Part shown: in pieces, positions 7,359 to 40,700 of the stretch
How positions within the stretch are numbered: position 1 is the stretch's first letter
Layout: every line of letters begins with the position of its first letter
Assembly (NCBI GenBank): GCA_964535955.1
Contig: CAZHVK010000010.1
Location: 1 to 43,724, forward strand
Source of the DNA: an uncultured Methanosarcinales archaeon
Lineage (GTDB): Archaea; Nanobdellota; Nanobdellia; Woesearchaeales; CAXGTL01
Length of the DNA: 43,724 nucleotides
Direction: 5' to 3'
Notes under the pieces: model-generated
Databases searched by the model: none
The model's input: the letters and a program-made list of their open reading frames with translations, nothing else
What the model was told of the DNA's origin: nothing
Program-made: the position numbers and the translations under genes

Positions 7359-7363
7359 AATCC

Positions 7364-16159: not shown

Positions 16160-18122
16160 GTTTCTTCAGATGATTGATGAGAAAAATAAACAGATTGAAG
16201 ATGCAAAGGAAAAGATACTAACTAGTTGTCCTGATTTTGATTTTGATAATTTTGAAACTCTTATAAAAAACTATAGGTATAAAAGTGGTGTCTTGAATAT
16301 TGTGCTTGACGCAATAGTAAGTGTTTCTGAATTGTATACAGATAAAAAAACAAGCCAAATGCTGATCAATAAATATAATTCTGAACAATTAAAAAGAATT
16401 GTGAAGCAGGAGAAATACAGATTTGATTTTCCTTATATTGTTGTTAAGAGTGTTGGAAATGCTGTAAAATTTACAGCTAAGGAAGATATTGCACAAATGG
16501 TTATAGATGTTTTTGAATCAGAAGAATTTGATGAGTTTGCAATCAAACATAATAAGAAATGGGAAAATTTTGCAGAGATAATGTTTAAACAGATAGGAGA
16601 ATGCACATACAGAACACAAAACAATGATAAAATAAAAACATTGATGAAGATCTATAATTCAAACAAGTTTAAGAAATTGATTTGGTTTTTTGATTCTCTT
16701 AATCAAGAGGTAGAAGGGTTTAACATAATCGAAGGTGTTGGCAGAACATTCTCAGGAACACAAAACAAGACATTGACATTTGAATTGATAGATTTTTTAA
16801 AAATAAATTGTTCTCTTTTTAATGAAAAATATCTTGCAGAAACTGCAAAAAGTATTGGTAATACTGCATTAGGAATTAACAATTCAAAAATAACAAGAAA
16901 TCTTATGAAATTAGTCAGATCTTATTGGCCAAAAAAAGGCACTGGATTCAGAGAAACACTTGAAACAGGATCAATGATTGTAAAAGAAGTAGAAAATATT
17001 TCTCTTGAATACAATGATAAGTCTTTGACACAAAAATTAATAGAAATCTATGATTCTGATAATTTTAGAGAATTAATAGCTAAACAAAATTTTTTAGGAG
17101 GAAAGGAAATTATTTCAGAGATTATTGAAAGAACACAAAAGATATTAAACTTTTGTCAAAGCAAAGATAAAGTAGATGATTTTTTTGATTTACTGCATGA
17201 ATATTCAAAAAGGGGAAGAATTATTACTGATTTAGTAACTGCTATTGATCGTATCAATAGAAGGTCTGTATTTAGTGAACCCATCTATGACAGGGTTATA
17301 AGATTATTTTATCACTATTCTAAGGATCCTAATAAAGGATTAAGCATTGCAAAAGTTCTTAATGATTTTGCTATTACAAATAATATGATGTTTTGTGGAA
17401 GTGAAACAATTGATCTATTAGAGCACTATAAAGATAATCAAGGATTGACATTTATCATTAACAAAGAAATATCTAAGATCAAGAATCCAATAGAAACTGA
17501 TAATCTAAAAAGATTGATTAAAAGGTATAAATCAAAAAGATTTGAAGATCTGATTGGATCTTATTATACAAAAAAACATAATAAACATTGGATGTTTTTG
17601 GTATCATCAACAATAAGAAAGATCTGTTGTTATAATCCTCATACAGATGTTGCTGATAAAATAATGGATGTTTTTGAACAGACAAGACACAGCAAGTTCA
17701 GGTATAACTTTTATGTCCCTGTTTTGAACCATGTTTTTAAAGATCTAAAAAATCCTGTAAAAATCAAGAATGTGTGTGATGTTTTTATAAAACAAAAACA
17801 TTATCTTGCTAAACAAAACATGGATGTTGGACCTTACTTAGCAATTGTCATGTCAGGTGTTGATGAGAAGTATCATTCAATTGTCAAAGATTTGGATGAG
17901 TATGATAAATTAAATCTTACAAGAGCTTACAAGATTGTTCAGAATTATGATGATAAAGAACCTGGTACTCTTAATACTTTTTACAAAACATTCCAGGCAG
18001 CATTAGAAACAAGACCAGAATCTGTTGGTAAATGGTTGTTAAGGATTGTAAAAGGTTATAAGAAAAAGATTGATGATGGGGTTTTGCAAGAGGTTTATGA
18101 TGCCATTGGAAAGACAGATTAA
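16146..18122 (+). CDS. Large helical-repeat protein, paralog 3
   Basis: ~658 aa, SD GGAGGT at 16135-16140. C-terminus LDEYDKLNLTRAY...GKWLLRIVKGYKKKIDDGVLQEV. Confidence 0.85.
   Translation: MSLDEFLQMIDEKNKQIEDAKEKILTSCPDFDFDNFETLIKNYRYKSGVLNIVLDAIVSVSELYTDKKTSQMLINKYNSEQLKRIVKQEKYRFDFPYIVVKSVGNAVKFTAKEDIAQMVIDVFESEEFDEFAIKHNKKWENFAEIMFKQIGECTYRTQNNDKIKTLMKIYNSNKFKKLIWFFDSLNQEVEGFNIIEGVGRTFSGTQNKTLTFELIDFLKINCSLFNEKYLAETAKSIGNTALGINNSKITRNLMKLVRSYWPKKGTGFRETLETGSMIVKEVENISLEYNDKSLTQKLIEIYDSDNFRELIAKQNFLGGKEIISEIIERTQKILNFCQSKDKVDDFFDLLHEYSKRGRIITDLVTAIDRINRRSVFSEPIYDRVIRLFYHYSKDPNKGLSIAKVLNDFAITNNMMFCGSETIDLLEHYKDNQGLTFIINKEISKIKNPIETDNLKRLIKRYKSKRFEDLIGSYYTKKHNKHWMFLVSSTIRKICCYNPHTDVADKIMDVFEQTRHSKFRYNFYVPVLNHVFKDLKNPVKIKNVCDVFIKQKHYLAKQNMDVGPYLAIVMSGVDEKYHSIVKDLDEYDKLNLTRAYKIVQNYDDKEPGTLNTFYKTFQAALETRPESVGKWLLRIVKGYKKKIDDGVLQEVYDAIGKTD
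17897..18085 (+). repeat. 189-bp exact direct repeat, copy 1 (3' end of paralog 3)
   Basis: Identical base for base to 21279-21467. Confidence 0.95.
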
Positions 18123-22652: not shown

Positions 22653-23360
22653 ATGATGATTAAGCTTGATAAAAAACCAAAAGGAGTAACAATTATAGAG
22701 GGATTTCCAGGATTTGGATTGGTAGGAACAATTGCAACAGAATTCTTGATAGATCACCTAAAAACAGAATTCATAGGTAATATATGGTTAGAAGATTTGC
22801 CACCGATTGCGACAATACATCAGAGCAAGATAATCGAACCATTAGGTATTCATTATAATAAGAAATATAATATTGTATTGATACATGGGATTACAGCTGC
22901 AAAAAGAATGGAATGGAAGATTGCTGAGGCAATTTCAAAAATTGCCAAGATGTTGAATGCAAAGATGGTGATTAGTTTAGAAGGAATTGGTGCTCCTGGT
23001 ATGAAAACAAGTAATCTTTATTATTATTCAACAGATCCAAAGCTTAAGAAAGCTATGAATAAAAATGGTTTAAAACTGTTAAAAGAAGGGATTATCGTCG
23101 GTGTGACAGGTGCTTTATTATTAAAAAGAACCAAATTACCAATGTCATGTATATTTGCAGAAACTGCTTCAAATCTGCCTGATTCTCGTGCTGCTGCTAA
23201 AGTGATTACAGCTTTGGATAAGATATTTGGGTTTAAGATTGATACAAAACCTTTGATGAAGCAAGCAAAACAGTTTGAAGAAAAATTAAAGACTTTGTTA
23301 AAAGGTGCACAAGCTGCTCAGAAACAAGTTGATAAGAAACAGTTAGATTATTTTGGTTGA
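22653..23360 (+). CDS. PAC2-family proteasome assembly chaperone
   Basis: IIEGFPGFGLVGTIATEFL, GIIVGVTGALL, PDSRAAA and a C-terminal HbYX-like tail. SD GAGGTGA. Confidence 0.92.
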   Translation: MMIKLDKKPKGVTIIEGFPGFGLVGTIATEFLIDHLKTEFIGNIWLEDLPPIATIHQSKIIEPLGIHYNKKYNIVLIHGITAAKRMEWKIAEAISKIAKMLNAKMVISLEGIGAPGMKTSNLYYYSTDPKLKKAMNKNGLKLLKEGIIVGVTGALLLKRTKLPMSCIFAETASNLPDSRAAAKVITALDKIFGFKIDTKPLMKQAKQFEEKLKTLLKGAQAAQKQVDKKQLDYFG

Positions 23361-24618
23361 TTTATCGACGAGGAATTAGGTTTTTGTGTTTGATTTTTTT
23401 TCTTTGTTTTTTTAATTTATTTTTTTATTGTTTTGTTTTAGTTTCTTTTAATGTTTGTAATAATTTTTCTTGAAAATAGATTCTGTTTTTCTTATACTTG
23501 GAATGCAGAAAAAACATGTCAGAATTGCATTTTTTGTGTCTATTTATTTGGTTTATTTAAAAATCACTTTGTCGACGATAAAAGAGGCTTCTAGTATAGG
23601 GAAAAGTATACTGATTTTATAGTGCCTAACTCCAAGTCTCACTTTTTGTTGTTTTGTGTCACTTTTGTTTGTTGTTCATACTGGTTTATGCTTACTTTTG
23701 TATGAATTTTGATATTTGTATGTAATTTGTATATCCACTGTATATGGTTCTATGTAATGAAGCTCATCTACTATACAAATCACTCACTTTTGATTAACTT
23801 GTATAGTGTGAATATTTATTTTCATATTGGGCTTTGATAGAGTCAGGATAAGGCTTTTTTTTGATATTTTATGTATAAAAGGAGTTAATTTTAGACTTGT
23901 TTTTAGATCTAAAACCTAGGGTTTTTATGCTTGTTCTGAGGTTTATTTGAAAACCAAATATGAGAAGTACAAGGCTTAATCTCGAAGAATTCTTAAGAAT
24001 TAGCTTATTTCCACCTAGATTTTTCATATAGGAAAGTGAGACTTTATGTATGGCTATTTTTGATGATTTTTTTGCTATTTTTTGCATGTTTTTTTGCTTA
24101 TTTTTTGTTTATTTTTGATCCAGGTGTTGTGTGTGTTTGAATATGTTTTTAATGCATTTTATATTGGTTTTTGCTGTTACTATATATTAAACTCACTTTG
24201 TATCCTTAAGATCCTTTTTTTCAATATTGTAAATTATATAGTCTAATGATTATTTTGGAATTATTATGTTGTGATGATTATTTTGAAGTATAGAATATAA
24301 GTTTTTAGCTTTGCTAAATTGTTTTATGTTTTGATAAAAAGTTTTGATTATTCCTTTTTTTCTTAGTGATTAAAAGTTATAGTTTTTGATTAATAATTCC
24401 AATCGTGCATTTTCTTGATTTTGATTATAAATTGTAGTTATTAACTACTAATTTTAATCTTGTTGATTCTTGTTTTGATTGAATATTGCCATTATTATTT
24501 GTAAGTTTTAATCAATTTTTTGTTAATTTTTTAGTGTTTTTTGATTGTTTTTTGAGACATTTTTGTCAGTTTCTGATTGATTTTTTGGATGTTTTTTTCC
24601 TGATTTTCAGGTTGTTTT

Positions 24619-25557
24619 TTAATCATTTTCTAGGTTAAATGGTTGGTGTTTTTTAAGGTCTTCGCGAGCCATTTTATTAGATATTTCCATATAAATAAGG
24701 GTTGTCTGCAAAGACTTATGACCAAGCTGTTTGTTGATTGTCACAATGTTGACACCAGAATCAAGTGCATGAACAGCAAAAGTATGACGCAAAGTATGAG
24801 GGCTAATTCTTGAGATTTCTTGAAGTCCAGCAAGGACTGCATATTTTTTGATCATTTTTTGGATGCCACGAGGTGTGAATTTTTTGTTCCAATTGCTAGA
24901 AAATAAAGGACCTTTTTTTCTGGTTCCAATGTAAGCTTTGAGTGCCAAAATCAAGTCATCATCAACAATATTTACAATTCTATCTTTTCCACCTTTGCCT
25001 TGTACTACTTTGATAGTGTTGTTCTCAAAGTTCAAATGCTTGATTTCAAGGGATACAAGCTCTGAGATCCTCAATCCTGTATTGTAGAGAAATAGGATTA
25101 AGATCTTGTCTCTGTAGTTTTTTATGACTGAAATAAGGTTTTTCATCTCTTGCTTTGTAAGGTATTTGGGTAGTTTGTGCCTGTATTTTTTGTAGTGCTT
25201 TTTTGGTTGTTTTTGTATAGAATTTTGAGTGCCTTTAGTTGGTAGGCTAGGGTGGGTGGTGGGGGATTTTGGATGGTGGGCAGAGGCCTTCTGATGACTG
25301 GATTCTTGAGTTTTAGAGGGTTTGGTGGGTTTTGGAGGATTTGGATTTTGATGTTGTTTTTGTATAGGTTTTTGTTGATTTAGAAGTGTTGTTTTAGGGT
25401 GGGAGGGTGGGTTGTTAGAAGTAGATTTTGGTTGGATTTTGTGTGTGTTTTTGGTATCAAGATTTGGTTGGTGGTCTGATTGTGGATGATGGGATTCTTG
25501 ATTATGTTGTTGCTTGATTTTCTTGATTTTCTTGATTTTAGGATGATCTTTTTTCAT
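24619..25557 (-). CDS. Xer-like tyrosine recombinase: catalytic domain plus a low-complexity N-terminus
   Basis: LPKYLT, TGLRISEL (R), GKGGKDR (K), HTLRH, LGH and TTLIY (Y). The first ~120 aa are K/Q/P/H/S/T-rich. Start ATG 25557 (SD AAGGTG) or GTG 25569. Confidence 0.9.
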   Translation of the reverse strand: MKKDHPKIKKIKKIKQQHNQESHHPQSDHQPNLDTKNTHKIQPKSTSNNPPSHPKTTLLNQQKPIQKQHQNPNPPKPTKPSKTQESSHQKASAHHPKSPTTHPSLPTKGTQNSIQKQPKKHYKKYRHKLPKYLTKQEMKNLISVIKNYRDKILILFLYNTGLRISELVSLEIKHLNFENNTIKVVQGKGGKDRIVNIVDDDLILALKAYIGTRKKGPLFSSNWNKKFTPRGIQKMIKKYAVLAGLQEISRISPHTLRHTFAVHALDSGVNIVTINKQLGHKSLQTTLIYMEISNKMAREDLKKHQPFNLEND

Positions 25558-25672
25558 TGATTTTGGCACCTTTGCTTTGCTTAAAATTTTTAGGCATTAT
25601 ATCCTGTGAAATACATGAAAAAGTTCGTTTTTTCATGAGTTGATTAAATTCTTTAGTCAGTATTTAAAGGAA

Positions 25673-25700
25673 AGTTCTCATAATGTTAAAAATACGAACT
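25673..25700. other. Candidate dif-like recombination site (11-6-11)
   Basis: AGTTCTCATAA-TGTTAA-AAATACGAACT, ~115 bp upstream of the recombinase gene. The left arm is XerC-box-like; the right arm is an imperfect inverse. Confidence 0.35.
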
Positions 25701-26117
25701 TATATTTAAATTTTTTTATTTTCATATTTGATTGTGTTTTGGCTTGTTTTTTAGGAAATAGAAGGGCTAAAATTAGGCTGTTTTTTGGCATTTTTTTGAT
25801 TTATTCTGGCTTGGGAAATGATGTTGAAAATTTTGTAATTTTGATATGTAAATGGGATTTTCATACTGATTTGAGATAAAAGATGATGTGGTTTTTGGTA
25901 ATGTTTTTTAATGCTTTTTTTGATGTTTTTTTGAATATCTCGTCGAGAAACCAGGATTTATTTTCATACATGATCTGGTGTGATTTTTGTGTGTTTGTAA
26001 TTATTTTCATACACCCCAAGTAATTTTCAATGTATTTTTTGATTTGGATTTTCCCTAAAAATTTCTAGAATTATTTTCATACTTAACCTAATTTTGGATA
26101 AAACTTTTAATCAATAC

Positions 26118-26648
26118 TTAGAAGTTTGAGATCTGTTTTTGTTGGATCTTTACAAGGTTTTGTTTTGTTTGAAGTTCTTTGAATTTTTCTTCTAAAGCTA
26201 TCAATGGATTTCCATTTTTGTAAGTCTTTACTACTGGAATTCCTTTCTCAATAAGATTTGTTATGTAGCTTCTAACCAATGGTTCTGAAAGACCTATTTT
26301 CTCTGAGATCTCAAAGTATGAAATAGGTGAATTTGAGGTGTAGAGAGCCATAAAAGCCATTTTTTCATTAACTGACAATGGCTGAATTTCAATTTTTTCT
26401 TGCTCTATCTGTTTGAAAGATTCTTTATCATCTAAAAAAACCTCAACATTATCTAATCTTAATTTTAGTTTTTCTATTTTCTGATCCATTTCACGGATAT
26501 ATTCATAGTTAGCCTGGATTTCATTAGTATTTTCATTAATAGAGTCCAAATGACCATTTAATTCTTGTTTTAACCTGGAAATAAGCCTTTTAATTGCTTG
26601 TTTAAAACCATATTTTTCATTATTTAGTTTTTCTTGTTTCTCAGACAT
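26118..26648 (-). CDS. Coiled-coil plus C-terminal winged-helix DNA-binding protein
   Basis: Heptad-like region (HLDSINENTNEIQANYEYIREMDQKIEKLKLRLDNVE), then LSVNEKMAFMALY...ISYFEISEKIGLSEPLVRSYITNLIEKGIPV. ATG 26648 with TTTATAAA 25 bp upstream. Confidence 0.85.
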   Translation of the reverse strand: MSEKQEKLNNEKYGFKQAIKRLISRLKQELNGHLDSINENTNEIQANYEYIREMDQKIEKLKLRLDNVEVFLDDKESFKQIEQEKIEIQPLSVNEKMAFMALYTSNSPISYFEISEKIGLSEPLVRSYITNLIEKGIPVVKTYKNGNPLIALEEKFKELQTKQNLVKIQQKQISNF

Positions 26649-26745
26649 CTGCAAAATTAGGTAAGAAGGATGTTTATAAACTTATTTATTTTCATATATG
26701 GTTTAGTTAATTTTATACATGATTTAGTTAACTTTATACATGATT

Positions 26746-27489
26746 TTATACATGAGAAAGTTGTTTTGCAATGTATTTTTTTTCTTTTCCTTGAATTATA
26801 ACGTCGATAAAATCTTGTTTTTCAGCTTCTCTAAGCACTCTGTAGAATGTACTTTTTGAACACAAACCTTGTTCATCGACGATAATTTGCTTAAGTTGAG
26901 TACCAGATATGGATTCATACTTGGTGATGAGATTTAAAATCAGCTTTTTCACATACTCTTTTGAGTTTCTGGTGATAGATGTGTAGAGTTTGTCTTTAAC
27001 TGTCTTTTTAGGAGCTGATTTTGGCTGATTCTCGAGAATTTGAAGCCTAGAGCTCACCTCATGCAATTTGTTGATCACAGGTTTTGTGTGTGGTTTTTGG
27101 TTTAGTAAAGCTAATTCTATCTCTTGCAAACGCATTAAAATTGGACTATGATCATGGTCCATCATACTCATTTTATCGTGTAAATTTCTCACTTTTTGAA
27201 GCAAAAGATTATGTTTATTTTGTTGATTATTTGGTTGGTTCTGTATGTTCTGGATCTGGTTGTGCAGGTATGGTAAATAGGATAAATGCTGTTCTATCTG
27301 TCTTAATCTTTGCTCTGTTTCAAGAAACCTTTTGTCATGTTCGTCATGTTTTTTGTGGAAAAAAGATAACCACTCGACGACGTTTTGAACATCCTGCCTA
27401 ACATGATTGAAAGATGTCGTCAGAAAACTATTAATTTTTGTTAAACTTTTTTCTTGATTTTCCTTTTTATTTTTTTTGAAAAATAGCAT
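26746..27489 (-). CDS. Coiled-coil plus C-terminal winged-helix protein
   Basis: ATG 27489 (MLFFKK) with TATA ~25 bp upstream. C-terminal ILNLITKYESISGTQLKQIIVDEQGLCSKSTFYRVLREAEK is wHTH-like. Confidence 0.8.
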   Translation of the reverse strand: MLFFKKNKKENQEKSLTKINSFLTTSFNHVRQDVQNVVEWLSFFHKKHDEHDKRFLETEQRLRQIEQHLSYLPYLHNQIQNIQNQPNNQQNKHNLLLQKVRNLHDKMSMMDHDHSPILMRLQEIELALLNQKPHTKPVINKLHEVSSRLQILENQPKSAPKKTVKDKLYTSITRNSKEYVKKLILNLITKYESISGTQLKQIIVDEQGLCSKSTFYRVLREAEKQDFIDVIIQGKEKKYIAKQLSHV

Positions 27490-27540
27490 ATTATTTGTTA
27501 TAAAGTGGTGCTTATTAATAAATCTTTGGGTGATTTTAGG

Positions 27541-27675
27541 ATAGTCCCAGGATGATTGTGGGACTATTGTGGGAATGAGAAATGTAGGAAGAGTGGCTAA
27601 TTCTCGAGAATACAAGAGAATCATAGTCTCAGGTGGGACTATGGTGGGACTATAATGGGACTATGATGGGACTGA
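27541..27675. repeat. Iteron-like TGGGACTAT array
   Basis: Direct copies at 27559, 27634, 27645, 27656 and 27667 (the last four 11 bp apart); inverted copies at 27541 and 27623. Confidence 0.85.
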
Positions 27676-28097
27676 CTATGTTGAAGGTGAGGGAAATACT
27701 GTGTCTTAGGATAAGGTTCATGATGATGAGATTTTTTTGATATTTTTGATGATTAAAAAAATAAATTTTTTGAAAAATAAAAAAAATTGTGGAATGATAT
27801 ATTTTGTGTGTTCTTGAGAATATGATAAAAATGTCTCATTTTTAGAGTATTTTTAGGTGTTTTTTAGATCCATATAGGATAAAACAAAGTCCAAAGTGAG
27901 TGTAAAATAAGGTATAAATAAGCAGATTTTTAACAGGATTATGAAAATAGTGCAAATAGGGTGAAAATACTAGAAAATCATAATATGAAAGTGAGATATG
28001 AAATATGCTATATTATGCTGTTTTTAGTGGTAAAAGCTTAAACAAGCCTATACAGGACTATATAGGTTAATTGTAAGTAGTAAAGTGAGGATTGTAT

Positions 28098-28185
28098 ATA
28101 GGGATTATATAGGGATTACATATGGTTTGTATAGGGATTACATAGGGATTACATATGGTTTGTATAGGGATTATATAGGAATATT
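28098..28185. repeat. 11-bp tandem array ATAGGGATTA(C/T) with a 33-bp higher-order period
   Basis: Units at 28098, 28109, 28120*, 28131, 28142, 28153*, 28164 and 28175 (* = variant ATATGGTTTGT). Confidence 0.9.
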
Positions 28186-28439
28186 ACTTGATTTAAGGCT
28201 TTATATTGATTTTACTATATGATTTTGTGGAAAAGTGAGGGTCTGCTAATGATATAGTGCTAAAATAAGCTGATCTTTGATATAATACATGATCTGATGT
28301 AGGGATATATATATTTATATAGGGAATTACTAGTAAAGTGAGAGTTAAGCATATTTTTGTATATTTTGGTGTGTTTGAAAATTGTCTAATATAAAAAAAA
28401 GATAGGTTAATATATGGAATGAAGATTAGATATGTAAAA

Positions 28440-29096
28440 ATGAGTGTTATAAGGTCTAAAAAGCAATTATCAATTGTTTTAAGTCGATTAAAAACATTTG
28501 AAAATAGTAAAGTGAGTCTTGAACAGTATTCTACTGATTCTGAGGTAGGTGCTTCTCTCTTGTGGAACGCCACTTTATTAGATTTTATCGACGATAAAAC
28601 AGTTTTAGACTTGGGTTGTGGTACTGGCATACTGGGATTGGGTGCTTTGTTTCTCGACGCTGATAAAGTTTTCCTCGTCGATAAAGATAAGGATGCTTTG
28701 GATGTATTAAAGGAAAATATCAAGTTTATCGACGATAAATATTTTAAAATTAATAAACAAAAGTATAAGATTATATGTAAAGATATTCAGGTATTGGATG
28801 TTGTGGATTTGGATAAGATGAAAATTGATCTTGTTATTATGAATCCTCCTTTTGGTGTTAAGAATAAACATGCTGATAAAAAGTTTTTAAAAGTTGGTTT
28901 CTCGACGAGAAAACCAGTTTATTCTATACATAAAGTTGAATCTCGTAAGTTCTTGGAAAAGTTTTCTGCTGATAATGGATATAAGTTAACACATTTTTGG
29001 GAAATGGATTTTCCTTTGAAAAAAAGTTATTCATTCCATAGGAAACCTGTTAAGAAGATTAAGGTTTGTGTCTGTAGGTTTGTTTTTTCTGGTTGA
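28440..29096 (+). CDS. METTL5-family N6-adenine RNA methyltransferase
   Basis: LEQYSTD, VLDLGCGTGILG, MNPPFG, HADKKFL, YSIHK and YSFHRK. Start at ATG 28440 preferred from TATA spacing (track: 28419). Confidence 0.9.
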   Translation: MSVIRSKKQLSIVLSRLKTFENSKVSLEQYSTDSEVGASLLWNATLLDFIDDKTVLDLGCGTGILGLGALFLDADKVFLVDKDKDALDVLKENIKFIDDKYFKINKQKYKIICKDIQVLDVVDLDKMKIDLVIMNPPFGVKNKHADKKFLKVGFSTRKPVYSIHKVESRKFLEKFSADNGYKLTHFWEMDFPLKKSYSFHRKPVKKIKVCVCRFVFSG

Positions 29097-31082: not shown

Positions 31083-31340
31083 TTTTTTTGTGATTTTAGT
31101 GGTGTGTTTTTTAATATTTTAGTATACATATTTGTATACTGATTATCGACGATAAACATAGTGTCAGAATATAGGGTTTTTATGGTGCCTAACTTAGATT
31201 GGAAATATTTTGTTAAAATACATTCAAACACAAAACTTTAAAAACAAATCATGTTTTCCAATATATAGCTTATAAGTCAGTTATTGATTTCTAAGTACAG
31301 ATAGATAAATAAAGAAAAAAACAAAGAAATAAATAGAAAA

Positions 31341-32705
31341 ATGGTTAAATTCGAAGATTTTAAATTAAGTGAAGATTTGTATAAATCAATAAAGAGATTA
31401 GGATTTGAGATTCCTACTGAGATTCAGAAAAGAGCAATAGATCCAATATTAAAAGGCAAAGATGTATTGGGAGAATCTGAGACTGGTTCTGGGAAAACAC
31501 TTGCATTTGGTTGTGGTATTGTTGAAAAAGTAGATAGAAAAAAAGGATTACAAGCTTTGATAATAACACCTACAAGAGAGTTAGCAGAGCAAGTTAAAGA
31601 AGAACTTCGTAGATATGCAAGATATAAACAACTTAAAATTATATCAATTTATGGAGGTGTAGCAATTGGTCCACAAATTGAAGGGCTAGGAATAGCAGAA
31701 GTAGTTGTTGCAACACCTGGAAGATTAAAAGACCATCTACAGAGAGGAACTATTAATTTTTCACATATTAAAATATTGGTACTTGATGAAGCAGATAGAA
31801 TGTTGGATATGGGTTTTATTGATGATATTGAAGATATTATAAGAGTCTGTCCAAGAAAAAGGCAAACATTATTCTTTTCTGCAACTATTTTACCGCGTGT
31901 TGAAGAACTAGCAAAAAAATATATGCATAAACCAATAAAAATATTAACAAGAAGGCAAGTGGACCCATCAAAACTTAAACAAGTTTATTATGATATCCCG
32001 AGAAATCTGAAATTATCTGTATTGTTACATTTAATAAAAAATGAAACTTCTAAACTTATCATGATATTTTGTAATACAAGAAGAAATACTGATTTTGTTG
32101 TAAAAAATCTAAAAGTTAATAAAATAAAAGCAGTAGCTTTACATGGAGGTTTTACACAAAATAAAAGATCAAAAACTATGGGTATGTTTAACAAAGGTGA
32201 AAGATGTATACTTGTTTGTACAGATGTTGCTGCACGTGGTCTACATATTGATGATGTTACACATGTTTATAATTATGATATTCCTAGAGATCCAACTGAT
32301 TATGTTCATAGGATTGGCAGAACTGCAAGAGCTGGTGAAAAAGGAAAAGTAATTAACATATTATGTGATACTGATTATGAAAACTTTTCTAAACTACTTC
32401 AAAGGTATTCATTTAATATAAAGAAAATTAAAAAACCTCATGTAGAGAGAGCTTTAGTGAGAAAAGATGATGAAGGTAGAGGAAGATTTGGTAACAGATA
32501 TTCTCATAGAAAGTTTGGTGGAAGAGGTTCTAATAGAAGATCTGGTGGAAGGAGTTCTAATAGAAGATATGATGGTGAGAGTTCTAATAAAAGGTATGGT
32601 GACAGAAGTTCTAAAAAAAGGTTTGGTAGTAGAAGATCTAATAGCAGGTCTGGTGGAAGGAGTTCTAAAAAAAAACCAAATGATAGAAGAAGATATAATT
32701 CTTAA
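31341..32705 (+). CDS. DEAD-box RNA helicase with R/G/S-rich C-terminal tail
   Basis: Q motif, TGSGKT, PTRELA, TPGR, DEAD, SAT, TDVAARG and HRIGRTAR. Confidence 0.97.
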   Translation: MVKFEDFKLSEDLYKSIKRLGFEIPTEIQKRAIDPILKGKDVLGESETGSGKTLAFGCGIVEKVDRKKGLQALIITPTRELAEQVKEELRRYARYKQLKIISIYGGVAIGPQIEGLGIAEVVVATPGRLKDHLQRGTINFSHIKILVLDEADRMLDMGFIDDIEDIIRVCPRKRQTLFFSATILPRVEELAKKYMHKPIKILTRRQVDPSKLKQVYYDIPRNLKLSVLLHLIKNETSKLIMIFCNTRRNTDFVVKNLKVNKIKAVALHGGFTQNKRSKTMGMFNKGERCILVCTDVAARGLHIDDVTHVYNYDIPRDPTDYVHRIGRTARAGEKGKVINILCDTDYENFSKLLQRYSFNIKKIKKPHVERALVRKDDEGRGRFGNRYSHRKFGGRGSNRRSGGRSSNRRYDGESSNKRYGDRSSKKRFGSRRSNSRSGGRSSKKKPNDRRRYNS

Positions 32706-33144: not shown

Positions 33145-34500
33145 ATGACTAAAATACTATTAATTCATCTACCATTTTGTACACCTGCAAGTCCTAGTTA
33201 TTCTATTACTTATTTGTATTCATTTCTTAAGAAAAATTGTTCTGTTTCTGTTCTTGATTTGAATCTTTTGTTTCATAAGAAGAAATTTGGTGATTTTGGA
33301 AAGTTTATTAGAAGCTTTGATGGTTCTGATTTGGATAAATATAGTGAAGTTGGTGGTGAATATAGTAAAATTTCGTCTAAAGTGTATGCTGAGAATAATA
33401 AAAAAGTTGTTAATGGTTTACAACCAGAATATTTTGATGAATTTGTTAAGATGATTCGTGATTATGAGGCTGATATTGTTTGTTTTAGTATTGTTTATTC
33501 AAGTCAGGCGTTTTATGCTTATTCTATATTAAAGGAATTGAAAGATGTTGTCACTGTTATTGGTGGACCTTGTGTTTGTGAGAAATTAGTTTCTGTTGCT
33601 GATGAATGTTTTGGTAATTATGAGAAGTTTATTGATTATTTAGGTGTTGATTTTGGTTGTGATGTTGGTAGTGATTTAGGTAATGGAATTGTGCTTGATT
33701 ATTCTGTATGGGATCTTGATTCATACTTTGTTCCTCACTTTGTAATGCCTGTTAAAACTTCTAATACTTGTTGCTATAAACAGTGTGTGTTTTGTTCTCA
33801 TTTTTCTAGTACAAAGTATTGTGAATATGATTTGGGTTTAGTTAGGCAAAGTATTTTATCCTCACCTACTAAATATGTGTTTTTAATAGATGATACTATT
33901 CCTGTTTCACGTTTGTTGAAGATTGGTGAAGTTTTTGGTCCATTGGGTATAAAATGGTGTTGTCAGTTGAGGCCTGTTGCTGGATTTAGTTATGATGTTT
34001 TGAAGAAGCTTAGAGAATGTGGACTTGTTATGGTTATATGGGGAGTTGAGTCTGGAAGTGATAGGGTTTTGAAGTTAATGCGTAAAGGTACTAATGTTGA
34101 TGATGTTTCAAATGTTCTTAAGAATTCTCATGATTCAGGCATTAAGAACGTTGTTTACATTATGTTTGGTTTTCCTGGTGAAAGTGAGAAAGAGTTTATG
34201 GAGACTTTATCTTTTTTAGAGAAAAATTCTGAAAATATTGATTTAGTTTCAACTTCAGTATTTGGTTTACAAAAAGGAACTCAGATTTATCAAAATTATT
34301 CTGATTTTGGTATAAGTAAAGTAGTTGAAGAGAAGAGAACTATTCTTCCACCGAAGATAAGTTATGAAGTTAGTAATGGGTTATCACATTCTGATGTTCT
34401 GAATATGAAAAAGAAGTATAAATCTGTTGTTGAAAAAATAAACAAGTATCCTAAGGAGATGAATTTCTTTAGGGAAAGTATGTTGTGTTTGTTGTTGTGA
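33145..34500 (+). CDS. B12-binding-domain radical SAM protein
   Basis: CYKQCVFC (CxxxCxxC), VIGGP, WGVESGSDRVLKLMRKG and YIMFGFPGES. Confidence 0.92.
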   Translation: MTKILLIHLPFCTPASPSYSITYLYSFLKKNCSVSVLDLNLLFHKKKFGDFGKFIRSFDGSDLDKYSEVGGEYSKISSKVYAENNKKVVNGLQPEYFDEFVKMIRDYEADIVCFSIVYSSQAFYAYSILKELKDVVTVIGGPCVCEKLVSVADECFGNYEKFIDYLGVDFGCDVGSDLGNGIVLDYSVWDLDSYFVPHFVMPVKTSNTCCYKQCVFCSHFSSTKYCEYDLGLVRQSILSSPTKYVFLIDDTIPVSRLLKIGEVFGPLGIKWCCQLRPVAGFSYDVLKKLRECGLVMVIWGVESGSDRVLKLMRKGTNVDDVSNVLKNSHDSGIKNVVYIMFGFPGESEKEFMETLSFLEKNSENIDLVSTSVFGLQKGTQIYQNYSDFGISKVVEEKRTILPPKISYEVSNGLSHSDVLNMKKKYKSVVEKINKYPKEMNFFRESMLCLLL

Positions 34501-34798: not shown

Positions 34799-37700
34799 AT
34801 GAATAAGGTTATTAGTAAATGGAAGTTGGTAATGTTTATGATCTTGTTAGTTGTTGTTTTTTATGTTAGTTTTACTTTAGCAGTAAGTTCAGAACCTTCA
34901 TCTGACTTGGAATGGAAAGCATTAGGAAGAACATTGAACAATACAAGATACACTCCAAGTGCTGCTCCTGAAAACATGTCTTTAGAAACAGTGATTACAT
35001 TTACTGCACCTTTTAATGTGTTGTATGGTCTAATTTCAGATGGTCAAAATCTTTATACTCACACATACAGTACTAGTCAATATTCTAAAGAAGGAGTGAT
35101 ACAATTAAATCTTTATAATATAAGTCAAGAAGTAAATAATGTTACTATTGCTTATCAAGCTGGAACAAGCTGTGTTGCAGATGATTATGTGTATGCAATA
35201 GGTGGTTATAGTGGAACTGTTTATCAATATAATAGAGATGATCTATCTTTAGTTGGATATAGCACTCATCCTAGTGGTACTTCTGCTAGTTGTATTGTCA
35301 GTGATGATTTTGTGTATCATGGTGATTGGCAGAGCGGCATCATAGGACAATTGAATTATACAAATATATCTATAGAAAATGATTTTTACAGTGCTTATAG
35401 ACATGATAATGGTATGGCTATTGTAGGTGATAGACTTTATTCAGCTGGGCTTAATAGTATAATAGTTATTAATACTTCAGGTATGAATTCTATACAAAGT
35501 GTTGCTCCAGGAACTGGTTATGAAGATGGAGATCATGCAGTGATTGCAAATGGACATTTTTATGCAATGTATCCTGATGCTGGAGACGATACTTTGACTT
35601 TTATTTTTCATAGAAATGCTACTGATATAACACAATCGTTTAGTGCTGGTTATACTTTAGCAGGGGCTGCATATAATGCTCCTGCTTATGCAAATGGTTA
35701 TCTTTATGTTGGTGCATCAGACGGAGTTTTATATCAATTAAATGCATCAAACATAACTATACAATTTTCTAATTTCACATCAGGTGGTGCAATGAGTGGA
35801 ACAGGACCAGCTGTTAATGATGAATATGTTTTTATAAATAGTAATGATGGTAATTTTTATCAATTAAATGCTTCAGATGTAAGTCAAGAAATTGCAAGAT
35901 ATAATCATGGCGGTACTGCTTATGCAGATCCTATAATTATTGACGGAGCTGTTTATTTTGGAGCAAGCTCAACTATTTATCAGCTTGGAATTCCGAATAC
36001 ACCTAAAATCACCTTGAATAGTCCTGCTGATGAATATGAATTTTCAGCATCTTCTGAATCTATAACTTTTAACTGCTCTGCTACAGATAATGAGCAATTA
36101 GTAAATATTAGTTTATACATAACTGGTGAAGATAATAATGATTTTATTTTGAATCAGACAACAAATATTTCTGGATTATCAAATGAAAGTACTTGGACTT
36201 TAACATTGCCAGAAGGTAATTATACATGGAATTGTTTAGTACAAGATAATGGTAGTAATTTTGGTTGGGGAACTAATCAAACATTAGTGCATGATATAAC
36301 AAACCCTTCGCTTGATTTTGTTTCACCTACTTTGTCAAATGGAACTTTTACAACCTTGACAACACTTGAAATAAATGTAACAATAACAGAAAGAAATTTA
36401 GATAAGTTAATCTATGATTGGAATGGAACTAATTATACTTTGTATAATGATTCTTTAGTTTTGATGATGAATTTTGATAATATAAGTGCTTTAGGTGAGA
36501 ATGAAACTTATGTTGTTGATGTAAGCAATAATGAATTTCATGGAATTGTTAATGGAGCAACATGGACAAATTCTAGTAAATATAATGGAGGTTTTGATTT
36601 TGATGGTACTTCAGATTATGTAAATAATAGTATGATTAATCTATCAAATGATGAAATTACAATTGCTGCATGGATTAAAGCAGATAGTTTTCAGGCAGTT
36701 TCGCCTTTTATCTCAACTTTAGCTGGAATTGAAGAAGGTACTGCTGGAAATACTCAAACTGCTTTAATTAGGTTTGGTGATGCAAGTCTTGCTAAAGAAA
36801 AAATGCAATTTGTCTTAGCAAATACTGAAGGAGGACAGGTAAAATTAGATGGAACCACAACACTTCAAACAAATACATGGTATTATGTTGCTGCAACTTA
36901 TAATGGTTCTGATATGCAACTTTACTTAGATGGTGTTTTAGAAACTTCAGATTCAGGATCTATTTCAGGAGGTATTCAAGCAAATGGTAATTTTTATGTT
37001 GCTTATAGCAATGGTGGAAGATACTTTGACGGATTAATCGATGAAGTTAGAATCTGGAACAAAAGTTTATCAGCAAAGCAAGTTTACCAAGAATATGTTT
37101 CTAATCTAAGAAAATATGATATAGATAAATGGGTGTTATATGTTAATCAAAGTTTTAATGCTACACAAATCTTACCTGATGGAAGTTATAGTTTTCAGTT
37201 TTATGGTGAAGATTGGAAATCTAATAAAGGTTTTTCAGAATTAAGAGAAATGACAGTAGATACTCGTGATCCTGAGTTTACAAGCATTGCTAACCAAACA
37301 ATTGAATATGATACTACAACTGGTTTTGAGATAAATGCAAGTGATAATATTGATGTTCAATGTTTTGATATAAATGATACAACAAAGTTTACTATTAATT
37401 GTACTGGATATGTAGAAAATAATACTTGGCTGGATATTGGGCTTTATGGGTTAAATATTAGTGTGAATGATAGTGCTGGAAATTATAATCATAGTATTAT
37501 GTGGGTTAATATTTCTGACACATTAGAACCTGGTTTTTCAACTATAACTAATCAATCTATTTTTGATCAGGATGCATTTGGTTATGATATTGATGCTAGT
37601 GATGATTATAATGTAAGTTGTTTTGGATTAAATGATTCTACTAATTTTAAAATCAATTGTTCTGGTTATCTTGAAAATAATACTTATCTAGATGTTGGGT

Positions 37701-40700
37701 TGTATGGATTGAATATTAGTGTAAATGATTCATCTGGTAATCATAATTTTACAACAATGTGGGTAAATGTTTCTTATAAACCTGTAATTGGATTAGAAGT
37801 TACAACTCCTAGTGAAAATGTGAATGTGTCACAAAATGAATTATTTACAGTAACTGTAAATGTAAGTTGTACAAGAGCTGATTGTAGTGAAATTGAAGTT
37901 AGTCTAGATCCTGCAGTAGATTATACTGATACATCTCCTTATTCTTCTGTATCTGCAGCACTAAATTGTAAAGAAAGTGGTTCTGGAACAGTAGATAGTT
38001 GTGCAGATGGTAGTAGTTGTACTTATCCATTCCAAGTAGATTATATGTATATTGAAGATTTAAATAATACTGTGTTTACAGGAGGAGATACTGTTGAAGT
38101 AACTTTAACTGCTCATACAGGATGTTGCAGTCCAGATGCTGTATGGGCTTATTCAAATGAAACTACTGGTGAAAGCAATTTTAGACAAGTAGGACGTACA
38201 GTTAATATTGCTACTGGAACTGTAAATTATTCAAAAACTTTTGTTTTAGATGATGTTGAAGGTAATCATACAATAAGGGGAGTCAATATTTATAGCGCTG
38301 CATCAACATCTTTATTATGTGGTTATGATGAATCTTCTGGAGCAACATATTCAGATACTGACGATGTTATAATCTATGTTGAAGAATCAGGTGGAACAAA
38401 AAGTGGATTAGTTTCAACAACAGTAGGCACAACTCCTTTTTATACAAATACTACAAATCCATATAATCTTTCTTTGAACAATGGTTCATCAGCAACAATC
38501 ACTTGGTATGTAAATGCAACTGGATCTCTTGATGAGATTTATGAATTCTTTGTATATGCAAACCAAACATCTGATTTATCAGTAAGTAATCAATCAAACA
38601 AATGGAATACAACAATCGTGAGTGGAGACGATGAAAGTCCTCCAACAATTACACTAGATCTTCCTGCTGTTAATACTAATTATACAATCAATGTTAGTTC
38701 TATTAATTATTTTGCTAGTGATAATTTTGATTTAAGCTTGTGTTGGTATACAACTGATCTAGGTGTTACTAATTCGAGTCTTGAAGCTGCTAATACTAAT
38801 TTTTCTAATATTCAAAGTGTAGAAGGATGGAATAATTGGACTGTTTATTGTAATGATAGTTCTAATAATATTGGTAATGGGAGTTCTAGTTTTTTTAAGG
38901 ATAATATCTTCCCAGGATTTGGTGTTGTGAGTAATCAGACAAATGAATTAGGTAGTAGTTTTAGTTATGACATTGATGCTAGTGATAGTAATGGAATTGG
39001 TTGTTTTTATGTGAATGATACTACTGTCTTTGCTATTAATTGTAGTGGATATTTATATAATAATACTTTTTTGAGTTTTGGATTGCATGAGTTGAATATA
39101 AGTGTGAATGATTCTATTGGTAATATTAATTCAACTTTAATGTTTGTTAATGTGACTGATACTACTGCTCCTTATTTTACAGATGATGTTGTTGTTGACC
39201 AGGTTGTGGAATATGGAAATACTTTTGGTTATGATGTAAATGCAAGTGATTTAGGAAATATTAGCTGCTTTACTGTGAATGATACTACTAATTTTGTGAT
39301 TAATTGTACAGGATATCTAGAAAATGTTACAACATTAGGTATTGATGTGTATAATTTGAATATTACTATAAATGATACTACTAATAATCTAAATTCAACA
39401 ACAATGTTTGTTAATGTAACTGATACAACTGCTCCTAATTTTACTAATATTGAAAATCAAACAATTTCTGTTGGAGCAAGTTTAAGTTATGATATAAATG
39501 CAAGTGACCTGTCTGGTGTAAGTTGTTTTTATGTAAATGACACTACTAATTTTGCAATCAATTGTACTGGTCATTTGTCAAATAGTGTTTCATTGAGTAC
39601 TGGTATTTATAATTTGAATATTACTGTGAATGATACTATTGGTAATATGAATTATATGTATATGTGGGTTGAGGTTGAAACTTCTGTACCAATTGCATTG
39701 AATTTTACAGATCCAACACCTGTAAATGCTAAAACACAATCAGAAACAAATGTTGAGATAAATGTTTCTGTTGTTGGAGAAGGTATTGATAATATTGTGT
39801 ATAATTGGAATGGAACTAATTATAGTATGTATAATGATTCTTTAATGCTTATGATGAATTTTGATAATATTTCTTCATTTGGTGAAAATGCAACTTATGT
39901 TGTTGATGTAGCTAGAGGAAATAATGGCACTACAATTAATGATGTGGTGATTAATGACTCAGGAAAGTATGGTGGTGGTGCGCATTTTGATGGAGTAAGT
40001 GATTCAATTAATGCAGGTACTGATGCAAGTTTGAATATCACAGGACCTGTTACTGTTTCAGCCTGGGTTTATGCATATGCTTATGGTCCTTCTGATCATT
40101 CACATATAGTAGGAAGAACACCTTCTGACCTAGGAGCTTATGCTAATGTAAATTATTACATTGGTTTAAAAACAAGAGATCCTATATTTATTATTGCAGA
40201 TACTTCTACAGGTGTTCAATGTACAGATACAACAGATCTTCCTCTTAAGACATGGACACATATCATAGGTACATGGGATGGTACAACTAATGCTGGTGGT
40301 GTAAAGTTGTATACAAATGGTATTTTAACTGATAGCCAGACATCACCAATAACTGCTATTGCTGGAACTTCAACTAATTTCTACATAGGAACAAGTGATA
40401 ATTCATTTGAATTCAATGGAATAATAGATGAAGTTCGTGTATGGAATAGAAGTTTGAGTGCAGGTGAAGTTTATCTTCAATATGTTTCTAATCTTCAGAA
40501 GTTTAATAATACATTATGGAACTTGTATGTTAACCAGAGTTTTAATGCTAGTCTTGGGTTAGATGATGGTAATTATACTTATCAAGTGTTTGGTTTTGAT
40601 GGTTCTGGTAATTCAAACCAAACAGAGCAAAGAATCTTAACAATTGATTCTAGCATACCTGGTTTTACTGATTTTGAAAATCAAACAATAGAATATGGTA

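Follow-up and report, generated by a model that had tools for sequence, protein, structure and literature searches.

The window examined in this work is a stretch of 43,724 nt (contig CAZHVK010000010.1 of assembly GCA_964535955.1) that was deposited under the name of an uncultured Methanosarcinales archaeon. It is gene-dense save for a region at approximately 23.4-28.4 kb, where about 2.7 kb of DNA free of open reading frames (ORFs) surrounds three genes, one encoding a tyrosine recombinase and two encoding coiled-coil winged-helix proteins, referred to here as wH1 and wH2 (Table 1). A sequence-only reading had proposed this locus as a replication origin independent of Orc1, or as a combined centromere and terminus hub run by the two winged-helix proteins. 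Our findings indicate that the locus is likely to be a cassette conserved on the chromosome, as opposed to an origin or a mobile element.

Conservation of the wH2-wH1 cassette

No ORF of at least 80 amino acids is present in 23361-24618 (spacer Z2), in 25570-26117 between the recombinase and wH1 genes, or in the 929 nt of 27490-28418 (spacer Z1). Two shorter ORFs from these spacers gave no Pfam match, and the corresponding spacer DNA of two related genomes (loci L001 and L002, defined below) is likewise ORF-poor. The start of wH2 at position 27489 (MLFFKK...) is consistent with the starts of its relatives. On the far side of Z1, the small methyltransferase (MT) gene is followed downstream by genes for endonuclease V, RpoL, and AMMECR1. 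Transcription diverges between wH2 (minus strand) and MT (plus strand), and the shift from a T-rich to a more A-rich top strand near 27.75 kb, which is real, falls at the change from minus-strand to plus-strand genes; both features simply mark the boundary between the two gene groups.

Table 1. Coordinates of the genes, spacers and sequence elements of the cassette in the window.
Feature	Position	Strand	Details
PAC2-family proteasome assembly chaperone gene	22653-23360	+	Pfam PAC2 1.5e-40; conserved outer flank of the cassette
Spacer Z2	23361-24618		1258 nt without ORF of at least 80 amino acids; 66-72% identity with L001, L002
Near-invariant promoter-like block	23566-23650	+	reads toward the recombinase gene; from alignment with relatives
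Motif B, left cluster	23638-24199	-	copies at 23638(-), 23783(-), 24192(-), 24033(+); 3 of 4 read CTCACTTT centre-ward; blocks conserved in L001, L002
Tyrosine recombinase gene	24619-25569	-	316 amino acids; start GTG 25569 or ATG 25557
Spacer between wH1 and recombinase	25570-26117		548 nt; four TTATTTTCATA motifs (25716, 25958, 26001, 26071, all +); one TCGACGA (25940, -)
Candidate dif-like site	25673-25700	+	AGTTCTCATAA TGTTAA AAATACGAACT; 11-6-11; 104 nt upstream of the recombinase gene
Motif E inverted repeat	26099-26126		AAACTTTTAA...TTAGAAGTTT; overlaps the wH1 stop codon; GATTAAAAGTTTTAATC in relatives
wH1 gene	26118-26654	-	Pfam HTH_24 3.1e-07
21-bp repeat	26682-26746		3.1 copies; wH1 promoter region; private to the window's genome
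wH2 gene	26746-27489	-	no Pfam family match
Motif A iterons (TGGGACT = AGTCCCA)	27543-27673		four copies phased at 11 bp: 27634, 27645, 27656, 27667
Tandem array, period 11	27634-27673		3.6 copies (Tandem Repeats Finder)
AT-rich run tract	27729-27790		55 of 60 positions A/T in 27729-27788
Motif B, right cluster	27893-28516	+	27893, 27988, 28082, 28232, 28335, 28509; 6 of 6 read CTCACTTT centre-ward
TATAGGGATTA array	28095-28179		11 bp x 7.7, 33-bp super-period; private to the window's genome
Small methyltransferase (MT) gene	28419-29096	+	Pfam MTS 1.3e-11; conserved flank

A search with wH1 returned 130 homologs at E ≤0.001, and 158 stretches of species-representative genomes encode a relative. 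The best 80 of these 158 stretches, each from a different species-level genome and taken with 10-kb flanks (loci L001-L080), were compared with the window by BLASTP of the window proteins against their ORFs, with wH1 set on the plus strand; contig ends cut many of the loci, so that the counts are lower bounds. Among the 80 loci, MT and RpoL are each present in 60, wH2 in 54, the recombinase and PAC2 in 45 each, and AMMECR1 in 35. Their order is always AMMECR1(-), RpoL(-), MT(-), Z1, wH2(+), wH1(+), recombinase (on either strand), Z2, and PAC2(-), with the PAC2 homolog downstream of wH1 in all of its 45 loci but L080. The trio of the winged-helix pair and the recombinase, which the sequence-only reading had noted in this one genome, is not sporadic. 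By their records, these belong to Woesearchaeota, Nanoarchaeota, or Nanoarchaeia; many Third Party Annotation (TPA) assemblies with Woesearchaeota-type synteny are titled “uncultured Methanosarcinales archaeon,” a label that looks wrong.

Conservation extends to the DNA between the genes. In bins beside the operon, the non-coding fraction of the loci is 0.22-0.30 vs approximately 0.10 elsewhere, and in the three closest genomes, whose proteins are 70-86% identical to those of the window, the spacers align at 66-72% and are just as poor in ORFs. Across the loci, the sequence motifs described below are kept although the proteins share just 35-50% identity. The gap between wH2 and wH1 is only 43-52 nt in L001 and L002.

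This conservation bears directly on the possibility that the locus is the remnant of an integrated plasmid or virus, composed of an integrase, regulators, and decayed genes. Such an origin would account for a tyrosine recombinase amid ORF-poor DNA and for the differing orientation of the recombinase gene between genomes. A perfect 15-nt inverted repeat, TTTATCGACGAGGAA, with one arm at 23361-23375 and the other at 28671-28685, 5.3 kb away, also has the look of element termini. The arms, however, are two copies of motif C (see below), one directly after the PAC2 stop codon and the other within the conserved methyltransferase gene. Moreover, gene order is kept in 45-60 of the 80 species-level genomes, the composition of the locus is unremarkable, a search of the window for tRNA and tmRNA genes came up empty, and tblastn of wH1 and wH2 against phage and plasmid collections gave no match, all of which leaves a mobile remnant close to refuted. 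The sequence-only reading had held this explanation in reserve, to be favored if skew extremes mapped elsewhere and the gene trio proved sporadic. A skew switch is indeed absent within the 10-kb flanks, but the three genes do not occur sporadically, so that the fallback fails as well. Rfam gave no match at its gathering cutoffs in the window or in seven of the loci, and at E-values up to 5 only weak matches far below cutoff appeared in 23000-28800.

The two proteins share a general architecture. wH1 consists of a long N-terminal helix with a conserved SINENTNEIQANYEY motif followed by a C-terminal winged helix; in its AlphaFold model (pLDDT 81.8), the helix spans residues 3-74. The wH2 model, also with pLDDT 81.8, shows a long N-terminal helix, further helices in a coiled-coil region, and a C-terminal winged helix. 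Neither model had a match at E ≤0.001 in a Foldseek search of the PDB, where the best hits were generic (MarR, ArsR, and SmtB for wH1; the HOP2 winged-helix domain, Fur, PadR, and BlaI for wH2), and sequence profile searches of the PDB, Pfam, and NCBIfam returned only generic winged helix-turn-helix (wHTH) matches. In particular, the Foldseek and PDB profile searches revealed no likeness to WhiP/Cdt1, plasmid Rep proteins, ScpB, or MatP beyond that of any winged helix, so the kinship with WhiP, RepA, ScpB, or MatP considered in the sequence-only reading found no support. In the ESM Atlas, both proteins fall within unnamed Woesearchaeota/Nanobdellota clusters; their nearest named look-alikes are TrmB/MarR regulators, with Atlas scores of 0.80-0.87, which we take as a lead only. 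A predicted complex of wH2 residues 1-165 with wH1 residues 1-92 scored 0.02 vs a mark of 0.32, a result that is evidence neither for nor against binding. A paralogous relationship between the two proteins was considered and set aside, as hhalign matched only 24 N-terminal residues with a probability of 21%.

Phased and polar motif arrays

The repeats, iterons, AT-rich tract, non-coding stretches, and oriented motifs on which the sequence-only reading was built are real, as judged by expected counts from 100 dinucleotide-preserving shuffles of the window, by tandem arrays called with Tandem Repeats Finder, and by a ranking of AT-rich 60-mers. TGGGACT (motif A) occurs seven times in the window vs 2.48 expected, a count that one of the 100 shuffles reaches, and six of the seven copies lie within 27543-27673. 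In addition to the phased copies of Table 1, an inverted pair is located at 27543(-) and 27559(+), and together these copies surround a conserved palindrome, ATTCTCGAGAAT (27594-27611), and the wH2 promoter. Similarly, loci with wH2 carry (G/T)TCCCA at -30 to -350 from the wH2 start, mostly in two blocks around the promoter, with adjacent copies spaced by 11 nt (151 times), 10 nt (32), 12 nt (12), 22 nt (27), or 33 nt (12). The related string TAGTCCCA is found 76 times vs 0.2 expected and is present in 30 of the 53 spacers between MT and wH2.

Between the iterons and the motif B array lies the AT-rich tract, whose segment 27729-27788 is the top AT-rich 60-mer of the window (55 of 60), with three other places reaching 54. 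An AT excess of 7 to 11% over the genome mean, at -225 to -300 from wH2, is kept in 45 loci. The elements that the relatives share are the AT tract, the TGGGACT iterons, and the motifs AAAGTGAG and TCGACGA. The two most conspicuous arrays, namely, the 21-bp repeat in three copies and the 7.7 copies of TATAGGGATTA, represent insertions relative to L001-L003. Among the less conspicuous repeats, TTATTTTCATA with at most one mismatch occurs 23 times vs 9.83 expected, and of its eight exact copies, six are in the locus, all on the plus strand. ATAGGGAT with at most one mismatch is not enriched window-wide (39 vs 34.7 expected; 26 of 100 shuffles reach 39).

The second element, AAAGTGAG (motif B), occurs 13 times in the window vs 2.78 expected, a count that none of the 100 shuffles reaches. 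Eleven of these copies are confined to 23638-28516, where they form one cluster on each side of the operon; nine of the 11 point inward, and the copy at 28509 falls inside the methyltransferase gene. Across the loci, motif B has a 13-nt logo, AAC.CTCACTTTT, derived from 213 instances. In Z1, CTCACTTT is found 79 times vs 0.9 expected (29 of 53 spacers), and in Z2, AAAGTGAG is found 66 times vs 1.5 expected (36 of 81 zones). A single 1-kb bin, -2000 to -1000, holds 195 of the 379 AAAGTGAG copies of all loci, and the motif is rare in the flanks. Within 4 kb of a dif-like recombination site (described in the next section), 167 of 194 copies in 34 loci are directed at the site, reading CTCACTT toward it in 106 of 116 cases on the left and in 61 of 78 on the right.

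Two other roles for motif B were tried and rejected. As a transcription start signal, it stands at no fixed distance from TATA-like hexamers, and as a ribosome-binding site, its six right-hand copies lack a consistent start codon when inspected by eye.

The third element, TCGACGA (motif C), has 10 copies in the window vs 0.04 expected, with none of the 100 shuffles reaching 10; nine of them are within 23365-28908. It is a near-palindrome, TT(A/C)TCGACGA(T/G)AAA, also found as TTATCGACGATAA, and it is spread over the region, including the inside of genes. Of 183 instances across the loci, 44 are non-coding. The motif is densest in the MT, RpoL, and wH2 genes, with 27 copies in 39.9 kb of MT genes vs 54 in other coding sequence, and the palindrome TTATCGACGATAA clusters within approximately 5.5 kb, 122 of its 173 copies lying at -3000 to +1000. 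The methyltransferase gene of the window alone contains four TCGACGA and one TCGACGC, which fall in two reading frames and occur in either orientation. In a window with a G+C content of approximately 29%, CG dinucleotides number 175 vs 877 expected from base composition, a roughly five-fold depletion; persistence of motif C against this depletion, in two frames and both orientations, implies that it is selected at the DNA level. GC dinucleotides in the window amount to 951, and 24 of the 175 CG dinucleotides fall within TCGACG-type motifs.

These motifs do not occur independently of the genes. In loci with wH2 and sufficient flank (n=45), the means are 9.8 iterons, 4.6 copies of motif B in Z1, and 2.9 copies of motif C, compared with 1.9, 0.4, and 0.9, respectively, in loci without wH2 (n=16). 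In eight loci where MT directly abuts wH1, motif C is absent and the motif B copies of Z2 are retained. These co-occurrence counts indicate that motifs A and C and the Z1 array travel with wH2, and that the Z2 copies of motif B and motif E (see below) travel with wH1.

Helically phased repeats beside the genes of DNA-binding proteins are familiar from plasmids. In the parC/ParR system of plasmid R1 and in iteron replicons (RepA, RepE, and pi), direct repeats in step with the helical turn lie in two blocks around the promoter of the binding protein, next to an AT-rich neighbor, and parS sites also occur inside genes. The cassette resembles these systems in its phased direct repeats, arranged in two blocks and adjoining an AT tract, which invites the view that wH2 and wH1 are centromere-binding proteins, that the iteron blocks form a partition site, and that the scattered palindromes are parS-like. 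The coiled-coil and DNA-binding architecture of the proteins, the position of the 11-bp iterons around the promoter of their operon, and the clustering of TTATCGACGATAA inside and outside genes would agree with such a function. However, no gene for ParA, ParM, or another nucleoside triphosphatase (NTPase) is conserved in the cassette, the proteins are of the wHTH type and not ribbon-helix-helix (RHH) or ParB proteins, and nothing links the locus to an origin-proximal position, which makes a centromere improbable. The cassette further departs from parC/ParR and the iteron replicons in being chromosomal and conserved phylum-wide, in having neither an NTPase motor nor the dual-winged-helix Rep fold, and in its period of 11 bp vs 17-22 bp.

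A fourth element, motif D, reads (T)TCATAGTGCCTAAC or GTGCCTAAC and is located just 3' of TATA-like boxes at a few gene starts. An orphan copy occurs at the outer end of Z2, within the near-invariant block that contains, in order, the palindrome TTGTCGACGATAAAA (motif C), two AGTATAC-type repeats, the TATA-like TTTTATA, motif D GTGCCTAAC (23623-23631), and motif B CTCACTTTTT (23638-23647). The same arrangement of D followed by B is present in 21 loci, and TTAGGCAC has 30 occurrences in 30 of the 81 Z2 zones. Judging by its promoter-like sequence, the block may drive transcription toward the recombinase gene. The sense of motif B relative to D promoters is always the same, and the pairing of TCGACGA with motif D recurs in front of the DEAD-box helicase gene, at about 31146-31200.

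Taken by themselves, these promoter associations would suit a purely transcriptional device, in which an autoregulated pair of factors controls itself and a few other promoters, such as those of the MT-RpoL-AMMECR1 operon and the DEAD-box helicase, with the arrays serving as operators, promoter elements, or signals in long leader or antisense transcripts. The iterons on the wH2 promoter, motif D at TATA-like boxes together with the orphan promoter of Z2, the recurrence of TCGACGA and motif D at the helicase promoter, the constant sense of motif B relative to D promoters, and, as a lead, the TrmB/MarR look-alikes of the ESM Atlas all fit this explanation. Nevertheless, four to seven polar sites spread over 0.7-1 kb on each side far exceed what an operator needs, and motif B keeps no fixed distance from TATA-like sequences. 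Its rarity in the flanks indicates that it is not a general signal, and motif C is kept within coding sequence, in two frames and on both strands, against the depletion of CpG. We consider a device of this kind unlikely, though it deserves more weight than the centromere.

Motif E, the inverted repeat at the end of wH1, recurs 44 times in the loci within the 500 nt that follow wH1 and is either a bidirectional terminator or a protein-binding site. As a candidate for dif, its form in relatives (GATTAAAAGTTTTAATC) was rejected because it coexists with a separate dif-like site, for example in L038.

XerA-like recombinases and dif-like sites

The recombinase that shares the bracket of motifs with the operon belongs to the XerA family in most relatives. 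The majority of the recombinases beside wH1 are full-length and XerA-like (269-294 amino acids), with a SAM-like N-terminal domain and a catalytic domain, as in L036 (Phage_int_SAM_4 and Phage_integrase). The window protein has a XerA-like catalytic domain at residues 135-297 (Pfam Phage_integrase 1.6e-38), and in place of the SAM-like core-binding domain its residues 1-117 form a low-complexity tract rich in P, H, Q, and K. The catalytic set R167, K192, H258, R261, H284, and Y293 (R-K-H-R-H-Y) is invariant in 32 sequences, including that of the window, which forms a very long branch of the tree together with those of L001 and L002. Other short tyrosine recombinases beside wH1, of approximately 220 amino acids (L014, L020, L043, and L044) or 210 amino acids (L023 and L066), have no N-terminal domain and form clades of their own; these six loci have no dif-like site near the gene.

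Archaeal dif sites are characterized by inverted repeats containing TAA-N6-8-TTA (PMC11840125). Using this feature and subsequent scoring with a position weight matrix (PWM), we identified 28-bp sites with inverted arms (11-6-11) upstream of XerA genes, such as TACGCGTATAA TGTACC TTATACGCGTA in L063 and ACTTCGCATAA TGCGTA TTAGGCGAACT in L060. Earlier scans, for generic inverted repeats and for GTTCG...GAAC, had found sites in few loci, and clustering of arm k-mers mostly recovered the palindrome at the wH1 stop codon and the iterons. The arms of the dif-like sites vary between clades yet stay complementary, that is, they covary, and the spacer is often TGTACC, identical to that of the Thermococcus kodakarensis dif. 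That 28-mer binds XerA in chromatin immunoprecipitation sequencing (ChIP-seq), as described in PMC11840125.

A dif-like site lies within 800 nt upstream of the gene in 27 of the 35 loci with a full-length recombinase and further upstream in two; the six full-length loci without one include contigs that end near the gene. The scores are 20-37 bits vs a maximum of 15.7 in 40 shuffled loci. High-scoring sites are present in one of the eight loci with other short recombinases, where it is located elsewhere, and in four of the 35 loci without a recombinase. A XerA-family gene is found inside the motif bracket in approximately 60% of the genomes with enough flank, and in most genomes with a bracketed recombinase a dif-type 28-bp core site stands at the gene's own promoter. 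Proximity of dif to xerA has been reported for Sulfolobales (PMC2958812) and for Haloferax and Halobacterium, in the former of which the site is upstream of the xerA operon (PMC11840125). The strand of the recombinase gene relative to wH1 varies between genomes. The dif-like site is invariably found upstream of the gene, and the asymmetric spacer of the site mostly has one orientation relative to wH1, a combination that suggests earlier inversions of the gene, at dif or close to it.

For the window itself, the candidate at 25673-25700 (Table 1) adjoins a run resembling a B recognition element (BRE) and TATA box at approximately 25701-25726, and L001 and L002 share its outer arms with the window without change. 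Its significance depends on position: four of 5000 simulated spacers reach its score, and the flanks hold nine such sites in 490,664 nt (0.010 per 548 nt). An initial score of 19.8 bits was discarded as circular, as the window's own clade had been part of the PWM training.

Strand bias and possible roles of the cassette

A replication origin or a classical terminus should be marked by a change in the sign of the strand bias. GC skew in the window is positive from 3 kb to the end, except for values of -0.021 at 7001-8000 and -0.007 at 26001-27000, and has no cumulative extremum at the locus. Across all loci, coding bases are mostly on the minus strand on both sides of the cassette, and of the ORFs of at least 300 nt, that strand carries 237 of 384 to the left and 169 of 270 to the right. 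When the GC skew of third codon positions (GC3) is split into a strand-flipping and a strand-fixed part, the strand-fixed component has the same sign on the two flanks, with -0.079 ± 0.013 for the left and -0.100 ± 0.012 for the right. Per locus, the flanks agree in sign in 23 of 33 cases (19 negative on both sides and four positive on both). The top-strand skew is negative on both flanks of L014 and L026, and on the left of L002 and L022, even though the minus strand carries less than half of the coding bases there. The sign change is therefore not seen, which argues against both an origin and a classical terminus.

The case for an origin rests on the layout of the locus. Here, the AT tract would serve as the unwinding element, the iterons and both AAAGTGAG clusters as sites for the initiator, and wH1 and wH2, or an Orc1 encoded elsewhere, as the initiator itself. 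The phased iterons adjoin the most AT-rich 60-mer in a conserved arrangement, an AT-rich element flanked by repeats being a feature of the oriC type. Two repeat clusters approximately 4 kb apart flank candidate initiator genes, and a RecJ/Cdc45-like DHH-CID gene is located 4-6 kb away in at least 14 loci. In Pyrococcus, as described in PMC1904270, two clusters of origin recognition boxes (ORB) and mini-ORBs flank cdc6 within approximately 5 kb, one of them inside a gene. The cassette shares with the Pyrococcus and Thermococcales oriC the two clusters of repeats of about 13 nt flanking genes of DNA-binding proteins, one cluster reaching into a coding region, as well as the AT-rich stretches. 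It differs from them in lacking Cdc6/Orc1, TTCC and GAA cores, and a switch in strand bias, and in the 11-bp phasing of its iterons.

Against an origin, GC skew, the strand component of GC3, and the majority gene strand all keep their sign across the locus, and the wHTH folds are generic. The absence of a cdc6/orc1 gene and of a canonical ORB, which the sequence-only reading had already observed, is borne out: Orc1/Cdc6 was not found in the 32 window ORFs scanned (the 2975-amino-acid ORF at 34799 being outside the scan), in 60 ORFs of L002, L036, L068, and L070, or in 118 of the 139 ORFs of 330-520 amino acids in the loci, and the motif B logo contains neither the TTCC nor the GAA core of the mini-ORB (TTCC...GAA, as described in PMC1904270). 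For the single DPANN genome whose skew analysis has been published, cumulative skew marks an origin that adjoins cdc6 (PMC5905446; see also PMC7111523). Iterons adjoining an AT-rich tract are insufficient for calling an origin, and with no initiator-like fold and no strand-bias switch, the proposal of an Orc1-independent origin is not supported; we regard an origin of any kind at this locus as improbable. A conserved hub built on the wHTH genes does exist, and the Xer and terminus-type half of the proposed centromere and terminus hub gains weight from the clear dif-like site beside a full XerA gene in relatives. The constant skew argues against a classical terminus.

The explanation that we prefer, and to which we assign about an even chance, is that the cassette is a lineage-specific autoregulated DNA-binding module whose convergent site arrays often enclose Xer/dif. 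At its core is the wH2-wH1 operon, which encodes two coiled-coil winged-helix proteins that are specific to the lineage and predicted to bind DNA. The position of the operon's promoter among 11-bp phased GTCCCA iterons points to autoregulation, and the two polar arrays of AAC.CTCACTTTT that bracket the operon and point inward from both sides may be the substrate on which wH1 and wH2 build a large, sequence-specific, directional nucleoprotein structure. By analogy with known systems, this structure could insulate or organize the dif-bearing segment, as a polar roadblock, a boundary, or a control on synapsis, and the recombinase, when bound at dif, would in addition restrain its own promoter. 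We infer both the pairing of proteins with motifs and the role of the complex from the motifs and their company of genes. A boundary or roadblock function in the specific sense is doubtful.

Several observations weigh against this explanation. Both a recombinase and a dif-like site are missing from 22 of the 60 loci in which at least 2.5 kb follows wH1, and several of these 22 still keep inward-pointing copies of motif B in Z2; the arrays thus belong to the wH2-wH1 operon, with Xer/dif as a frequent tenant that is maybe a mere neighbor. The window recombinase reaches 187.1 bits on the NCBIfam model XerA_Arch, below the cutoff of 220, covering only model positions 77-260 of 263, and this truncated, fast-evolving enzyme may be inactive or repurposed. 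In the candidate site at 25673-25700, only 7 of the 11 arm positions are complementary, and the core reads TAA-N6-AAA instead of TAA-N6-TTA. A PWM that excludes the window's clade gives it 10.1 bits, which ranks second behind the 11.2 bits of a hit at 33370-33397. The best PWM score of the window is attained in 54 of 300 simulated windows, so the site is not significant window-wide, and the homologous L001 site scores -2.4 bits. As for position, dif is not at a classical terminus here, as the strand bias does not switch. Ten of the 33 loci have opposite skew signs on the two flanks, and the skew decomposition relies on our own ORF calls, covers ±10 kb per locus, and draws its left flank partly from the same syntenic genes.

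The closest known counterpart of the module is found in T. kodakarensis, where, according to PMC11840125, dif occupies an intergenic stretch of 1.9 kb flanked by TrmBL2 sites, which stall Smc-ScpAB. Like the archaeal Xer/dif systems and this boundary, the cassette has a XerA-family recombinase and, in relatives, a 28-bp 11-6-11 site, often with TGTACC. The site is in or next to unusually long non-coding DNA, with predicted clusters of winged-helix sites on both sides, and adjoins xerA, as in Sulfolobales and Haloferax (PMC2958812, PMC11840125). Unlike in T. kodakarensis, the DNA-binding proteins are encoded in the locus and belong to families confined to DPANN archaea, with no detectable membership of TrmB, and the sites on either side form convergent arrays of a 13-nt motif with strict polarity. 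The cassette also exists without Xer/dif (the 22 loci above), the window recombinase is N-terminally truncated, and there is no sign of a terminus.

Polar DNA sequences that converge on dif or the terminus in other systems offer a second comparison. Fork traps are formed by Tus-Ter and RTP-Ter, and the gene for the replication terminator protein RTP, a small protein with a winged helix, lies next to the Ter sites of the system. Genome-wide polarity is a feature of the FtsK-orienting polar sequences (KOPS) and of the archaeal short polarized sequences (ASPS) described in PMC2958812. As in KOPS, ASPS, and Ter, the asymmetric motif B flips its orientation around the dif-bearing segment (167 of 194 copies inward). 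Unlike KOPS and ASPS, it is confined to approximately 1 kb per side and is not spread over the replichores, and unlike at Ter traps, there is no evidence of fork convergence at the cassette.

From these comparisons, a more specific proposal can be formulated, in which the cassette would be a compact, self-encoded “dif activity zone” whose two dense arrays, read by the DPANN-specific winged-helix proteins, act as one-way gates, steering or stalling a structural maintenance of chromosomes (SMC) complex, a translocase, or a replication fork onto dif and xerA. If true, a local device would replace the genome-wide logic of KOPS and FtsK in organisms without FtsK. We consider it unlikely in this specific form. 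In a bolder and very improbable variant, the AT tract and iterons would fire and replication would proceed unidirectionally, so that the locus would be origin and terminus at once; this would account for the lack of a switch in strand bias.

In a literature search whose coverage left out subscription journals, we found no description of the cassette, of a DPANN dif site, or of the wH1 and wH2 families. The parts are of known kinds (Xer/dif, winged-helix regulators, and iterons), and it is their combination that appears to be new, with self-encoded proteins, strict 11-bp phasing, and convergent polar arrays. DPANN archaea are uncultured, and little is known of the replication, resolution, and organization of their small chromosomes. 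The cassette contributes concrete parts to this subject, namely, two protein families without known function, four to five defined motifs, and a predicted Woesearchaeota/Nanoarchaeia dif beside xerA. Should the arrays prove to be polar roadblocks or guides around dif, the module would represent a compact counterpart of the Thermococcus TrmBL2/SMC boundary and would illustrate how dimer resolution can be directed without FtsK.

Other features of the window and of the related loci stand apart from the cassette. The DHH, DHH-CID, or DHHA1 proteins near wH1, members of the RecJ/Cdc45-like family of replisome-associated nucleases, are not encoded in the window; examples of their genes are L015:4974-6395, L020:2879-4315, L023:994-2430, L027:4459-5904, L029:4412-5839, L044:1889-3310, L052:3952-5385, L055:4858-6294, L059:4592-6052, L060:3628-5043, L066:2113-3528, and L070:4198-5613. 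L070 additionally carries an ORF (16084-17115) with PCRF and RF-1 domains, a bacterial-type class I release factor that is unexpected in an archaeal bin and could be a gene transfer or a binning artefact.

Within the window, the segment 8356-21513 begins with a gene for an AAA_5 (MoxR/dynein-type) ATPase, which is followed by five large co-directional ORFs (849, 610, 710, 659, and 1147 amino acids) without a Pfam match, the last of them internally repetitive; together, these genes may form a lineage-specific multi-protein system. Tandem repeats of 27/81 nt at 32501-32674, at the 3' end of the DEAD-box helicase gene (31341-32705), resemble a repetitive C-terminal tail. Finally, a giant ORF of at least 2975 amino acids (34799-43724) runs off the window and ends in 54-nt tandem repeats (43351-43724) that would encode a Glu/Lys-rich tract.

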